A stretch of DNA of 32,000 bases from Wolbachia endosymbiont of Armadillidium arcangelii. GTDB lineage: Bacteria > Pseudomonadota > Alphaproteobacteria > Rickettsiales > Anaplasmataceae. The notes beneath the pieces are model-generated. The model ran no database searches. It worked only from the letters and a program-made list of their open reading frames with translations, and was not told where the DNA came from. The DNA is taken from positions 202,001 to 234,000 of the forward strand of contig NZ_CP157942.1 of assembly GCF_040207875.1 (NCBI RefSeq), read 5' to 3'. Below, piece by piece: positions 22,178 through 25,920 of the stretch (positions are counted from its first letter, which is position 1; each line of letters begins with the position of its first letter). A program made the translations under genes and the position numbers.

Positions 22178-22355
22178 AGGATGTTAGTAGTTTTTTTTGT
22201 TTGCGCTTTGAATTCTACTAAAAATTCAAATAAGTGTAAAGGGCAGAAATGCCCTTTACATAAATTCCCCTTAAAATCTAATGTTTACCAAGGATAGTAT
22301 AGCTTTATGCTATATAAAGCATATACCTTTTATTGTTTGATCTACAAATCCTTTA

Positions 22356-22384
22356 TTGAAAAATTCAGAAAAATGTTGTATAAT
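22356..22384 (+). promoter_or_regulatory. Sigma-70-like promoter P1 of TA cassette 1 (TTGAAA-17 nt-TATAAT)
   Basis: TTGAAA at 22356-22361 and TATAAT at 22379-22384. It lies within a ~58-bp block conserved upstream of all four antitoxin genes. Confidence 0.6.
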
Positions 22385-22408
22385 TACTGATAAACTTCGG
22401 TAAAACTT

Positions 22409-22648
22409 ATGGCGGATTCAAGGATTAATGTAACTTTCAGTAACGAAACCTCAGGTTGTCTTGCTGATTTGGCTAAAGCTACTAAGAAGCCTGTTCAAGA
22501 ATTAGCAGAAAAGTTAATCAGAAGGGCGATTGACGAAGTAGAAGATATTGCACTATCTCAAATTGTTGATGAGTGTGATACCCCAGATATGGAGATGATT
22601 AGAAGTAAGGATATAGACTGGAATACAGTTCTAAAAGATGGAGCATAA
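22409..22648 (+). CDS. RelB/ribbon-helix-helix-type antitoxin (cassette 1)
   Basis: 79 aa (MADSRINVTF...LADLAKATKKPVQELAEKLIRRAI), with an acidic C-terminus. Overlaps the downstream RelE-like gene by 11 nt. Confidence 0.8.
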   Translation: MADSRINVTFSNETSGCLADLAKATKKPVQELAEKLIRRAIDEVEDIALSQIVDECDTPDMEMIRSKDIDWNTVLKDGA

Positions 22649-22937
22649 GCTCAAATACGATATTATCTATTCAAAAAATATTCTTAAGAAAGATCTTCCA
22701 CGCATCTCAAAAGAAATAAGGTCAAGTATCATAAAAGCCATAGAAGAGCGACTGGCAGTTGATCCAATGAAATTTGGTAAACCGTTATATGGTAACTTCA
22801 AAGGACACAGAAGGGTAAGAGTTGATGATTACCGCATTGTCTATCGTGTGGACGTTATAGAATACAAAGTAATTATTGTTTCAATAAAGCACAGAAGTGT
22901 TGTTTATAAGCAAACAAAGTTATCAGATTTATTATAA
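22638..22937 (+). CDS. RelE/ParE-superfamily toxin (cassette 1)
   Basis: 99 aa. PLYGNFKGHRRVRVDDYRIVYRVD...VIIVSIKHRSVVY is the typical RelE/StbE C-terminal pattern. Confidence 0.85.
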   Translation: MEHKLKYDIIYSKNILKKDLPRISKEIRSSIIKAIEERLAVDPMKFGKPLYGNFKGHRRVRVDDYRIVYRVDVIEYKVIIVSIKHRSVVYKQTKLSDLL

Positions 22938-22940
22938 GTC

Positions 22941-22974
22941 AAAGATCTCTTCTGAATTTTTAGAAGAGATCTTT
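22941..22974 (+). terminator. Hairpin immediately after toxin 1 (13-bp perfect stem, 8-nt loop)
   Basis: aaagatctcttct gaattttt agaagagatcttt, starting 4 nt after the stop. It is followed by ATTGAAAA and overlaps the start of the P2 block. There is no long U-tract. Confidence 0.5.
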
Positions 22975-22975
22975 A

Positions 22976-23004
22976 TTGAAAATTTCAGGAAAATGTTGTA
23001 TAAT
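22976..23004 (+). promoter_or_regulatory. Promoter P2 of TA cassette 2 (TTGAAA-17-TATAAT)
   Basis: TTGAAA at 22976-22981 and TATAAT at 22999-23004. Same conserved block as P1. Confidence 0.6.
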
Positions 23005-23028
23005 TACTCATAAACTTCGGTAAAATTT

Positions 23029-23250
23029 ATGGCAGATTCAAGGATTAATGTAACCTTTGATACAGAAACCTCACAACACCTTATTGAGCTGGCTAAGGCT
23101 ACTAAGCAGTCTGTTCAAAAGTTAGCAGGAAAGCTGGTCAAAGAAGCGATCGAGCTTGAAGCAGAAGATATTGCGTTTTCTAAAATTATTAGGGAATTGA
23201 GTGATGATGATGCAGAAGAAATAGAAGATAGTGAAGACATCTGGAAATAA
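23029..23250 (+). CDS. RelB/RHH-type antitoxin (cassette 2)
   Basis: 73 aa, MADSRINVTFDTETSQHLIELAKATKQSVQKLAGKLVKEAI. Overlaps the toxin gene by 20 nt. Confidence 0.8.
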   Translation: MADSRINVTFDTETSQHLIELAKATKQSVQKLAGKLVKEAIELEAEDIAFSKIIRELSDDDAEEIEDSEDIWK

Positions 23251-23539
23251 ACGTTATACTCTCAAATATCTCAAACATGTTATTAAGAGGAATATACCTT
23301 CCTTACCAGAAGACATTAAACCAAGTATTAAAGAAGCAATAAAAGAATATCTAGAGACTGATCCTATTGGTAATGGTGTATCATTACGCAATAGATTAAA
23401 GGGACATCGCAGAATACGAGTGGGTGATTATCGTATCATCTACCGTGTAGATACTGCAAAACGTATAGTAACTGTTGTTTCGATAGGACATAGAGATAAC
23501 ATTTACAATCAGGCAATATTAGACTTACTAAAACGTTAA
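23231..23539 (+). CDS. RelE/ParE-superfamily toxin (cassette 2)
   Basis: 102 aa, LKGHRRIRVGDYRIIYRVD...VTVVSIGHRDNIY. Confidence 0.85.
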   Translation: MKTSGNKRYTLKYLKHVIKRNIPSLPEDIKPSIKEAIKEYLETDPIGNGVSLRNRLKGHRRIRVGDYRIIYRVDTAKRIVTVVSIGHRDNIYNQAILDLLKR

Positions 23540-24588: not shown

Positions 24589-24604
24589 GTATAATAATAT
24601 ATTT

Positions 24605-24889
24605 CTACAGTAAATCTAATGGTATCTTATCATAAACATCTTTTCTATATCCTACTGAAGCAGGAATTATTTTATGTTCTGCAATGTTTATACGGTACAC
24701 AATACGACAATCTTTAGTTCTGAAGCTTCTATATCCTTTCAAATTACCACTTAGCGGTTTACCAACCTTGAATGGATTAAATGCAATTTCGTCTTCTATG
24801 AGTTTTTTTATTTTTTTTCTTATTTCTGGTGACAAGGGACGAAAATCTCTCTTAAAGATTTTTTCTGGGTAATCAACCTCATACTTCAC
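24605..24889 (-). CDS. RelE/ParE-superfamily toxin (cassette 3), divergent at conserved positions
   Basis: 94 aa, PLSGNLKGYRSFRTKDCRIVYRIN...GYRKDVY. It has the same architecture as the other three toxins, but GDYR is replaced by KDCR and HR by YR. Confidence 0.7.
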   Translation of the reverse strand: MKYEVDYPEKIFKRDFRPLSPEIRKKIKKLIEDEIAFNPFKVGKPLSGNLKGYRSFRTKDCRIVYRINIAEHKIIPASVGYRKDVYDKIPLDLL

Positions 24890-24896
24890 AATTTAT

Positions 24897-25133
24897 TTAT
24901 GCAGATAATAGTGTATCCCAATCTACATCACCGCCTTTAATCATCTTTGCATCAGGAGAATCAGTTTCCTTGATGATTTTCGAGAGTGCGATATTTTCAA
25001 TTTCACATTCGATTCCATCTATGACTAACCTTTTTGCTAACTTTTCAACTGACTCTTTGTTGAATGTAGCTAGTTGGGTGAGATTGTGGAGAGCTTTTGA
25101 GTTGAGTGTTATAACAACTTTTGAATCATCCAT
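24897..25133 (-). CDS. RelB/RHH-type antitoxin (cassette 3)
   Basis: MDDSKVVITLNSKALHNLTQLATFNKESVEKLAKRLVIDGI. I moved the start to ATG 25133, because the conserved leader ggtaaaattt directly precedes it, as in the other cassettes. Confidence 0.7.
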   Translation of the reverse strand: MDDSKVVITLNSKALHNLTQLATFNKESVEKLAKRLVIDGIECEIENIALSKIIKETDSPDAKMIKGGDVDWDTLLSA

Positions 25134-25161
25134 AAATTTTACCAAGATATACTGCTACATA

Positions 25162-25190
25162 AGTATACAACATTTTCCTAAAATTTTCAA
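25162..25190 (-). promoter_or_regulatory. Promoter P3 of TA cassette 3 (TTGAAA-17-TATACT)
   Basis: On the minus strand, TTGAAA is at 25190-25185 and TATACT at 25167-25162. Same conserved block. Confidence 0.55.
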
Positions 25191-25250
25191 TAAAGAATGG
25201 ATCAGCAAGGAGGGCTGTATAATGAAATATACTATGCTTATAGGAAGGTT

Positions 25251-25535
25251 CTAACTTTTATAGATGTATTCTCTATGCTCTATTGCAGTAATTATTACTG
25301 TACGTTCTAATTTACTTATCCTATAAACCAAACGATAATCACCAGATCGTATTCTACGATGTCCTTTGAACTCACCGAGTAATGGATCTCCTGCTTTTTC
25401 AGGAGAAAGTGTAAGACGCTCTTTTACAATTTCTTTTATCCTTGACCATATTGTCTTTGGAAGGTTTGAAATGTCTTTGTGAACTACATTTTCCTCATAG
25501 CAGATTAAATACTTATCACCAGTTGATGTCTTCAT
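25251..25535 (-). CDS. RelE/ParE-superfamily toxin (cassette 4)
   Basis: PLLGEFKGHRRIRSGDYRLVYRIS...VIITAIEHREYIY. The start is set at ATG 25535 (MKTSTGDKY...). This parallels MKTSGNKRY of toxin 2 and gives the same 20-nt overlap with the antitoxin gene. Confidence 0.8.
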   Translation of the reverse strand: MKTSTGDKYLICYEENVVHKDISNLPKTIWSRIKEIVKERLTLSPEKAGDPLLGEFKGHRRIRSGDYRLVYRISKLERTVIITAIEHREYIYKS

Positions 25536-25725
25536 GCCTGATGAATTTTGCATTTCGAGTGTCACGTTGAATAGCAAGTTTGGCTATTGCCATATCTTCT
25601 TCATTTTCAATTGCTTCTTTTATAAACTGCTCTGCTAGCTCTTGAGCTGATTGATTCTTTACTTTAGCCAGACGAGCAAGGTCTTTTAAAACTTTTTCAC
25701 TAATATTAATGCCTGAATCAGCCAT
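25516..25725 (-). CDS. RelB/RHH-type antitoxin (cassette 4)
   Basis: 69 aa, MADSGINISEKVLKDLARLAKVKNQSAQELAEQFIKEAI. Confidence 0.75.
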   Translation of the reverse strand: MADSGINISEKVLKDLARLAKVKNQSAQELAEQFIKEAIENEEDMAIAKLAIQRDTRNAKFIRHEDINW

Positions 25726-25749
25726 AAGTTTTACCGAAATCTACCATTA

Positions 25750-25778
25750 ATTATACAATATTTTCCTAAAATTTTCAA
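25750..25778 (-). promoter_or_regulatory. Promoter P4 of TA cassette 4 (TTGAAA-17-TATAAT)
   Basis: On the minus strand, TTGAAA is at 25778-25773 and TATAAT at 25755-25750. Same conserved block. Confidence 0.55.
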
Positions 25779-25920
25779 TAAAGAATTATATTGACAGATT
25801 ATGGTAGGTTGAGTATACACGGGTATTAGCTTTTGCTGATGTTAAGGAGAAATGACACAGAAGTTAATACTAAGTATAGTATTGCAAGACATTATTAGGA
25901 ATAGAGAGGGTATGCCAGCC

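Follow-up and report, generated by a model that had tools for sequence, protein, structure and literature searches.

We report that four RelBE toxin-antitoxin (TA) cassettes in a 32,000-nucleotide (nt) stretch of the Wolbachia endosymbiont of Armadillidium arcangelii (contig NZ_CP157942.1, positions 202,001 to 234,000; this whole stretch is hereafter the window, and positions are counted from its first letter) are each preceded by the same short non-coding leader, that leader and coding sequence have separate histories, and that gene pairs are exchanged, gained and lost behind the leader by recombination. The explanation that we prefer, with a probability of about 0.7, is that the leader is a selected sigma-70 promoter and 5' untranslated region (UTR) that would also provide the block of homology for cassette exchange and concerted evolution. 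Whilst RelBE is known from pWCP, pWALBA, islands and WO prophages, what we rate as new is that ordinary RelBE modules evolve as exchangeable cassettes behind a common, predicted promoter.

Four RelBE cassettes and their leader

Four intact cassettes, each pairing a RelB-type, ribbon-helix-helix (RHH)-like antitoxin with a RelE toxin, occupy 22409-22937 (C1) and 23029-23539 (C2) on the forward strand, and 25133-24605 (C3) and 25725-25251 (C4) on the reverse strand; a tblastn search of the window returned no RelB or RelE copies beyond these four. Their components are given below, where toxin scores are to be read against cut-offs of 23 bits for PF05016 and 27.9 bits for TIGR02385 (RelE/StbE), and L with a number labels a compared locus.

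22349-22408, forward: leader 1, TTGAAA-17-TATAAT and 5' UTR; nhmmer E 1.4e-13
22409-22648, forward: C1 antitoxin, 79 amino acids (aa), RHH-like; RHH_5 and RelB-like matches weak, below cut-off
22638-22937, forward: C1 RelE-family toxin, 99 aa; PF05016 38.9 bits, TIGR02385 33.9 bits
22969-23028, forward: leader 2, TTGAAA-17-TATAAT
23029-23250, forward: C2 antitoxin, 73 aa; 81% aa identity to phage WOMel RelB
23231-23539, forward: C2 RelE-family toxin, 102 aa; PF05016 44.4 bits, TIGR02385 34.9 bits
24605-24889, reverse: C3 RelE-family toxin, 94 aa; PF05016 24.0 bits, TIGR02385 29.5 bits
24897-25133, reverse: C3 antitoxin, 78 aa; 87% aa identity to the L091_+5294 antitoxin
25134-25197, reverse: leader 3, TTGAAA-17-TATACT
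25251-25535, reverse: C4 RelE-family toxin, 94 aa from ATG 25535; PF05016 31.6 bits, TIGR02385 28.6 bits
25516-25725, reverse: C4 antitoxin, 69 aa; DUF6290 and RelB_antitoxin matches below cut-off; 94% aa identity to L129_+944
25726-25785, reverse: leader 4, TTGAAA-17-TATAAT

All four toxins exceed both cut-offs, which places them in the RelE/StbE branch of the RelE/ParE superfamily; a profile of ten toxins matched Rv2866/RelG in the PDB at E 1.3e-15 together with solved RelE chains, and the C1 toxin is 95% identical to a RelE toxin from Wolbachia of Rhagoletis cingulata. The antitoxin gene lies directly 5' of the toxin gene, overlapping it by 11 (C1), 20 (C2) and 20 nt (C4) and separated from it by a 7-nt gap in C3, and the C4 toxin most likely starts at ATG 25535 and not at TTG 25577. 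The antitoxins are less easily classified: their matches to RHH_5, DUF6290 and the RelB NCBIfam family all fall under the family cut-offs, and a PDB sequence search with the antitoxin gave nothing significant. An AlphaFold2 model based on 37 homologues (mean predicted local distance difference test score, pLDDT, 67) predicts an extended N-terminus followed by helices at residues 12-25 and 29-55, and its top Foldseek matches are RHH antitoxins and repressors, at a non-significant E > 0.4. The antitoxin family is nearly confined to Wolbachia (54 matches, one of these from Mesenet).

Each leader is 60-64 nt long, begins (T)TCTTTATTGAAAA and runs up to the ATG of its antitoxin. A consensus scan of 21400-25950 ranked the four leaders first among sigma-70-like sites (11, 11, 11 and 10 of 12, each with a 17-nt spacer), and a 32-nt degenerate pattern running from the -35 to the -10 box matches these four sites only in the window and gives 0 matches in 100 dinucleotide-preserving shuffles. 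The end of the -10 box lies 24-28 nt from the ATG. These features suggest that the leader comprises a near-consensus sigma-70 promoter and the 5' UTR of each relBE operon, although promoter activity is a prediction. A preliminary description of this region had proposed four diverged RelBE cassettes behind such promoters (TATACT in place of TATAAT in cassette 3), and the cassettes, the positions of the leaders and the rank of the promoter-like sites all bear it out; its term 'almost invariant' suits the first ~36 nt, i.e. -35 through -10, but not the more variable 5' UTR half, in which C3 is 4 nt longer. The C1, C2 and C4 leaders are 5 nt short of the family consensus. Homologous RelE operons of wMel prophages are reported to be highly expressed, and appear to be co-transcribed with an upstream gene (PMC4683655).

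The possibility that the leader contains an RNA element was also considered and is ruled out, as the implied UTR of ~20-28 nt has no significant fold (leader z = -0.4); an Rfam scan of the island that carries the cassettes placed no family on the leaders, and only sub-threshold hairpin miRNA models on a palindrome described below.

The leader is not a local peculiarity: RelBE loci across the family carry it, whether they lie on Wolbachia plasmids, on plasmid-like islands or in WO prophages. A hidden Markov model (HMM) of the leader finds at least 40 copies in Wolbachia loci; the leader also stands 5' of RelB in pWALBA1 and pWALBA2, in a weaker form in phage WOMel, and in a recognisable, WOMel-like version in a prophage of Ca. 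Mesenet. The Wolbachia census is partial and many of its loci were ascertained through the leader pattern; since the sample had been found in this way, loci were additionally fetched by toxin protein, and in all seven distinct Wolbachia loci so retrieved the leader lies directly 5' of the antitoxin (nhmmer E 1e-12 to 3e-15; these include the Rhagoletis cingulata relative, pWCP, wCle, a group B strain from Cyclophora, wStri and Ca. W. massiliensis). No trace of it was seen upstream of two non-Wolbachia homologues (toxins 53-55% identical), and viral contigs scanned with a stricter leader pattern gave no matches. A loose pattern run on a genome collection gave matches in Bartonella and Anadelfobacter that are unrelated, and most of its matches are chance occurrences in AT-rich genomes.

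Well-preserved leaders are also found before decayed cassettes (L117 ~5737, L128 ~5315, L131 ~1161 and L140 3315-3371), where the ATG has become ATA or the antitoxin is truncated; in several cases the leader seems to outlast the genes that it once served. A weak partial leader without a recognisable start lies at ~4503-4547 of L021.

Separate histories of leader and coding sequence

Pairwise identity among the window cassettes is 78-93% for the leaders, 62-76% for antitoxin DNA and 60-67% for toxin DNA (35-56% and 33-47% for the respective proteins). The formal alignment, i.e. leaders at 78-93% against coding sequence at 60-76%, thus upholds the earlier observation that non-coding sequence is here better conserved than the genes that it precedes. 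The same holds across 14 distinct cassettes, where mean leader identity is 82% (84-90% over the first 30 nt), compared with 55-65% for coding DNA, 49-62% for third codon positions and 31% for the flank upstream of the leader. We read the third-position values as near saturation, which indicates that the cassettes are old; an unconstrained 60-nt stretch of that age would have diverged, so that purifying selection, homogenisation or both act on the leader.

Leader and coding sequence do not, however, share a history. Leader identity is unrelated to antitoxin identity (r = 0.014; 378 pairs, 28 cassettes), and in 11 orthologue-like pairs from different loci (antitoxin identity at least 75%) the leaders are 78% identical, compared with 81.5% across all different-locus pairs, whilst leaders from the same locus average 87% (label permutation p = 0.0004). 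When 37 cassettes were split into flank, promoter half, UTR half, first 60 nt of the gene and remaining gene, Spearman linkage was 0.48 within the antitoxin gene, 0.18-0.20 among the flank and the two leader halves, and 0.07-0.09 between leader and gene; this drop indicates a break at the start codon, with the leader staying with its location. All of these pairwise statistics use non-independent pairs.

Individual alignments give the same picture. C4 and L129_+944 are ~90% identical from the ATG to the toxin stop (30-nt windows) but only 74% identical in the leader, with the break at the ATG, and the pattern recurs for C3 and its L091 orthologue and for C2 and its WOMel and L126 orthologues. 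In L021 three leaders are 97-98% identical and their antitoxins only 40-56%. Across the cassettes compared, leader variants do not co-vary with the 5' end of the antitoxin gene.

Mosaic structure was also observed within antitoxin genes. The 3' halves of the L021_-2478 and L126_-1520 genes are 100% identical and their 5' parts different, whilst L021_-3067 and C4 have similar N-terminal domains and different C-terminal toxin-binding tails, indicating that recombination joins domains within cassettes too.

Cassette turnover and its explanation

The elements between and beside the cassettes at which turnover can be followed are these:

22943-22972, forward: terminator-like hairpin between C1 and C2, 11-bp stem; DNA fold z = -3.2
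23536-24405, reverse: DnaB-like helicase, C-terminal domain only (DnaB_C); PF03796 E 2e-80; plasmid backbone gene
24386-24588, no strand: palindrome of 203 nt between C3 and DnaB_C, with 31-nt perfect outer arms
24565-24602, reverse: 3' junction motif after C3 (TTATACAGCCCTCCTTCCTGATCCATTCTT); direct-repeat partner of 25193-25230
25193-25230, reverse: 3' junction motif after C4, abutting leader 3; 92% repeat of 24565-24602

The closest relative found, an island in Wolbachia of Silvanus unidentatus (L146), matches the window at about 96-97% identity over leader 1, C1, the hairpin and leader 2 as far as the first codons of the second antitoxin. Its second cassette, behind a leader that is ~97% identical, is a different RelBE pair: between those first codons and the stop of the toxin gene, identity is visibly lower and paralogue-like, and directly beyond the stop similarity returns. 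L146 also has a C4 orthologue (93.6%) and lacks C3, a unit that is bounded in the window by a 38-nt direct repeat (24565-24602 and 25193-25230). In L136 the C1 orthologue (94%) runs into the 3' end of DnaB; the hairpin, leader 2 and C2 are absent there, and a hairpin copy stands instead 5' of the C1 leader; BLAST coordinates alone suggest this arrangement in L146 as well. L143 shares the flank at the backbone site that C4 occupies in the window, and its leader is identical over the first 38 nt, but UTR and antitoxin differ. Recombination breakpoints lie directly downstream of the -10 box in L143, elsewhere at the ATG or no more than a few codons away from it, and also inside antitoxin genes. 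The suggestion in the preliminary description that the promoter acts as an 'adapter' under which TA genes are swapped is supported by the separate histories of leader and gene and by the L146 replacement, with the restriction that exchange is limited to one RelBE family and does not involve different TA families.

The hairpin at 22943-22972 directly follows the C1 toxin, and leader 2 begins with the hairpin's T-rich tail; the hairpin narrowly fails the T-run rule of our scan. Between cassettes, the junction consists of the 3' motif ATATATTTTATACAGCCCTC..TT.CT[GATCCAT]TTCT followed directly by a leader. In its long form the motif is the palindrome's outer arm, and a tandem duplication that ran from the start of a leader into the arm would produce a junction of this kind, with part of a palindrome arm before a leader. 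Cassette number at the palindrome/DnaB_C site varies, from one in pWALBA1 and L146 to two in the window and L129 and eight or more in L021, where eight leaders lie within 8 kb with a period of ~600 nt and the array is closed, as in the window, by the palindrome and DnaB_C.

The preferred reading, i.e. that of a selected promoter which is also a block of homology, would connect these observations as follows. Purifying selection would keep the promoter of each relBE operon, and the spacer, with its GAAAAT repeats one helical turn apart, would probably be a common, putative binding site for RHH-type antitoxins. The leader with the first antitoxin codons (~100 nt) and the palindrome-derived 3' motif are the only long conserved stretches between diverged cassettes, and with homology confined to these, crossovers and gene conversion would be expected to fall there. 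Homologous recombination or gene conversion could then replace, add and delete cassettes as units, whilst the leaders would remain with their location and be homogenised among neighbours. Several diverged modules may be retained for stabilisation of the element, or for competition and anti-addiction among related plasmids and phages.

The strongest alternative dispenses with recombination, and holds that selection alone maintains a promoter and a common operator, bound by all RelB-like antitoxins and inherited vertically with the cassette. Conservation of the leader in Wolbachia from many host species, and its recognisable form in the Ca. Mesenet prophage, are in keeping with this, as is the conservation of the spacer, a segment not usually under constraint from RNA polymerase, with GAAAAT repeats 10-11 nt apart; the RHH-like layout of the antitoxins adds weakly to the case. 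However, selection alone leaves unexplained why the leaders of orthologous cassettes are no more similar than those of random pairs, why linkage breaks at the start codon, why leaders cluster by locus and how a cassette came to be replaced behind a ~97% identical leader in L146. We consider it unlikely as a full account: selection is part of the best explanation but cannot be the entire story.

Also improbable, in our estimation, is that the leader and 3' motif constitute a dedicated, integrase-free analogue of an integron which, possibly with a PD-(D/E)XK/Rpn nuclease, shuffles RelBE among plasmids, islands and WO phages, the leader acting as a common and perhaps co-repressed promoter-operator. 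Genuinely integron-like site-specific recombination, in which a specialised enzyme, e.g. the accompanying PD-(D/E)XK/Rpn nuclease, cuts the junction of leader and 3' motif, is more doubtful still. Units do have sharp edges at the 5' end of the leader and at the toxin stop or 3' motif, the pWALBA2 cassette carries the motif on both flanks, and PD-(D/E)XK/Rpn genes adjoin the cassettes of pWALBA1 and pWALBA2 and are found within the array of L021. No integrase was found, however, among the proteins checked in or beside the island (DnaB_C, the DDE transposase, RelB and RelE, and two small open reading frames, ORFs, without Pfam match) or in the L021 array (where they include a PD-(D/E)XK gene), and the junctions of 3' motif and leader have no attC-like fold, neither strand folding more stably than shuffled sequence (z = -0.3 to +0.4). 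Breakpoints are moreover scattered, with mosaic joints inside antitoxin genes of the kind that homologous recombination gives, and homologous exchange fits this scatter better than does a site-specific enzyme.

Two further explanations are rejected. That the cassettes are young tandem duplicates, with coding parts evolving fast under positive selection and leaders too young to have changed, would agree with the junction structure and with the general knowledge that TA pairs are quick to diversify; this is very hard to reconcile with third codon positions only 49-62% identical or with close orthologues elsewhere (C4 in L129, C3 in L091, C2 in WOMel, C1 in L135 and L146), which indicate that the cassette types are old. 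That the leader is a terminal repeat of a miniature inverted-repeat transposable element (MITE) or insertion sequence (IS) rather than a promoter has least of all to commend it: the cassette region does end on both sides in 83-nt inverted repeats made up of leaders 1 and 4, but this inversion follows from two convergent arrays around DnaB_C, seen also in L146. Moreover, pWALBA1 and WO prophages have single copies of the leader, it has no associated transposase, and in the examined cassettes its distance to the RelB-type start downstream, or to the decayed remnant of one, is constant and its orientation is that of the gene, the exception being the weak partial match in L021.

Whether the antitoxins cross-regulate one another's operons, the other proposal of the preliminary description, bears on the operator component of the preferred reading. 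The operator-symmetry search found only short repeats, namely GAAAAAT/GAAAGAT (10-nt spacing), TGTTGTA/TGTTATA (11 nt) and TATAA-N3-TTATA, and the TGTTGTA/TGTTATA pair is lost from three of the four window leaders; the conserved spacer with its GAAAAT repeats is the best candidate operator. E. coli RelB reads short TTGTAA-like repeats, which we take as a lead only. In L021 identical leaders precede antitoxins with different predicted DNA-reading strands (RINVTF, KVSITF and GINIAL). Given such leaders, such strands and the lack of co-variation, any repression by antitoxin at the leader would need a common site, and cross-repression would follow; cross-regulation is in this sense plausible.

Several points weigh against the preferred reading or limit it. 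The difference just described can be turned around, as differing putative DNA-reading residues behind identical leaders sit uneasily with a common operator. The assignment of the antitoxins to the RHH class, by remote matches and a model of limited confidence, is weak, and promoter and operator function of the leaders, like antitoxin binding there, are predictions from their sequence. Fast-evolving leader positions (slippage at TAG repeats, A-tracts) could mimic part of the decoupling. Ascertainment through the leader inflates the apparent invariance of the pattern positions, and the correction for this comes from a small, toxin-based sample (7 loci). Lastly, DnaB in L146 is 86.6% identical to that of the window, compared with 96% on the C1 side, and the segment exchanged between these two genomes may be the cassette alone or a longer tract including DnaB.

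Comparison with known systems and setting of the cassettes

The RelBE loci of pWCP, pWALBA1, pWALBA2, the islands and WO prophages belong to the same protein families as those described here and have the same kinds of neighbours, i.e. DnaB_C helicase, HP1 and palindrome. The portions of the literature available to searching describe two RelBE loci and an extragenic palindrome on pWCP (PMC6401122) and Wolbachia plasmid-like islands flanked by transposable elements (PMC9560607). In the passages searched, the pWCP, pWALBA and WO papers treat RelBE as an addiction module and do not mention leader, junction motif, arrays or decoupling, and no description of these was found elsewhere in the searchable papers.

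The operons resemble E. coli relBE and its operator relO in being bicistronic and antitoxin-first, with the toxin gene overlapping or adjacent and the promoter directly upstream, and in combining a RelE-family toxin with a small antitoxin that is predicted to have an extended N-terminus and then two helices. They differ in that the Wolbachia antitoxins score below the RelB family cut-offs, and in that relO is autorepressed by the RHH antitoxin RelB and by the RelB-RelE complex, whereas the Wolbachia operator is only putative. The E. coli relBE paralogues each have their own promoter region; in Wolbachia one leader is common to many diverged paralogues.

Closer in organisation are the Vibrio superintegrons (VCR/attC), where small TA cassettes with their own promoters likewise stand in tandem, inter-cassette DNA is far more alike than the genes, and cassettes are gained, lost and replaced as units. 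In the Wolbachia arrays, by contrast, no integrase was found and attC hairpins are lacking, the conserved stretch between cassettes is itself the promoter/leader, the cassettes all belong to one family, and exchange looks homologous or like gene conversion. A likeness to the 'orphan' modules of the Rhs and contact-dependent inhibition (CDI) systems lies in a conserved block before a variable toxin/antidote unit, crossover in the conserved part and accumulation of diverged units; those systems, however, swap C-terminal toxin domains of large secreted proteins via a conserved coding region, whereas in Wolbachia the conserved part is non-coding and each unit is an entire, intracellular type II TA operon.

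These cassettes show an intracellular symbiont with a reduced genome keeping and diversifying many addiction modules, as interchangeable TA units behind a fixed and strongly conserved expression block, with turnover visible between close relatives. They also make it testable whether paralogous TA systems in one cell have common regulation and yet private toxin-antitoxin pairing. We know of no genetic tools for Wolbachia; a short, family-wide, near-consensus native promoter/leader beside the conserved palindrome and DnaB_C of its plasmids is an obvious candidate part for expression cassettes and shuttle vectors.

The setting of the cassettes is, by backbone homology and synteny, a plasmid-like island of the pWCP/pWALBA type, cut on both sides by IS4-family copies. 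The window, with a G+C content of 35%, is of Wolbachia origin, and its DNA is matched best by the Wolbachia plasmids pWALBA1 and pWALBA2 and by phage WO records. Compared with these two plasmids by blastn, the island DNA is ~80% identical over 42% of its length, and the window DnaB_C is homologous to the DnaB-like gene of pWALBA1. L146 contains a fuller island with ParA, a small ORF at the position of the ParG-like gene of pWALBA1, and HP1; ParA is absent from the window copy. Positions 21410-25921 are enclosed by two inverted 1576-nt IS copies:

19834-21409, forward: IS4-family copy 1, left island edge; transposase interrupted
25922-27497, reverse: IS4-family copy 2, right island edge; intact 425-aa DDE transposase

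The copies differ at 3 bases, and T at 20899 creates a stop that divides the copy 1 transposase into 321 + 89 aa, compared with 425 aa in copy 2. The pair brackets the island in the fashion of a composite transposon, copy 1 truncates an HP1 homologue, and no obvious target-site duplication was seen at the outer flanks of the copies.

The palindrome has a perfect, AT-only core of 34 nt (24469-24502) and folds as a single hairpin (-107 kcal/mol with RNA parameters). The same palindrome follows the last cassette in L021 and L129, and the four differences between the window and L021 arms are mirrored in both arms, indicating that the inverted symmetry is being preserved. The palindrome probably corresponds to the 'extragenic palindrome' reported for pWCP, and is a candidate origin or resolution site. 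The C2 toxin stop overlaps that of DnaB_C by 4 nt, and the annotated start of DnaB_C (MDQEGGL...; ORF 24405-23536) lies inside a palindrome arm (24386-24416). The equivalent arm of L021 has a TAA in the DnaB_C frame, and its ORF begins further downstream, so that the true start in the window may also lie downstream.

Genes for PD-(D/E)XK/Rpn 'recombination-promoting nucleases' are repeatedly found beside or within RelBE arrays on Wolbachia plasmids and islands, and two flank the single cassette of pWALBA2; the window island has none. Their positions in other loci are:

L021, 3185-4030: PD-(D/E)XK/Rpn gene
L001, 2475-3371: PD-(D/E)XK/Rpn gene
L002, 4368-5222 and 6100-6948: PD-(D/E)XK/Rpn genes
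L141, 6902-7792: PD-(D/E)XK/Rpn gene

Upstream of the island lie a gene for a 914-aa leucine-rich-repeat protein (14532-17276, reverse strand) and a 554-aa ORF without Pfam match (18222-19886, forward strand) that holds a 168-nt tandem duplication (19041-19376, 74%). Just beyond the right IS copy are two adjacent paralogous ORFs (27784-28110 and 28226-28573) with a common 249-nt repeat of 80% identity, the first of which matches the TrbC/VirB2 pilin family of Pfam.

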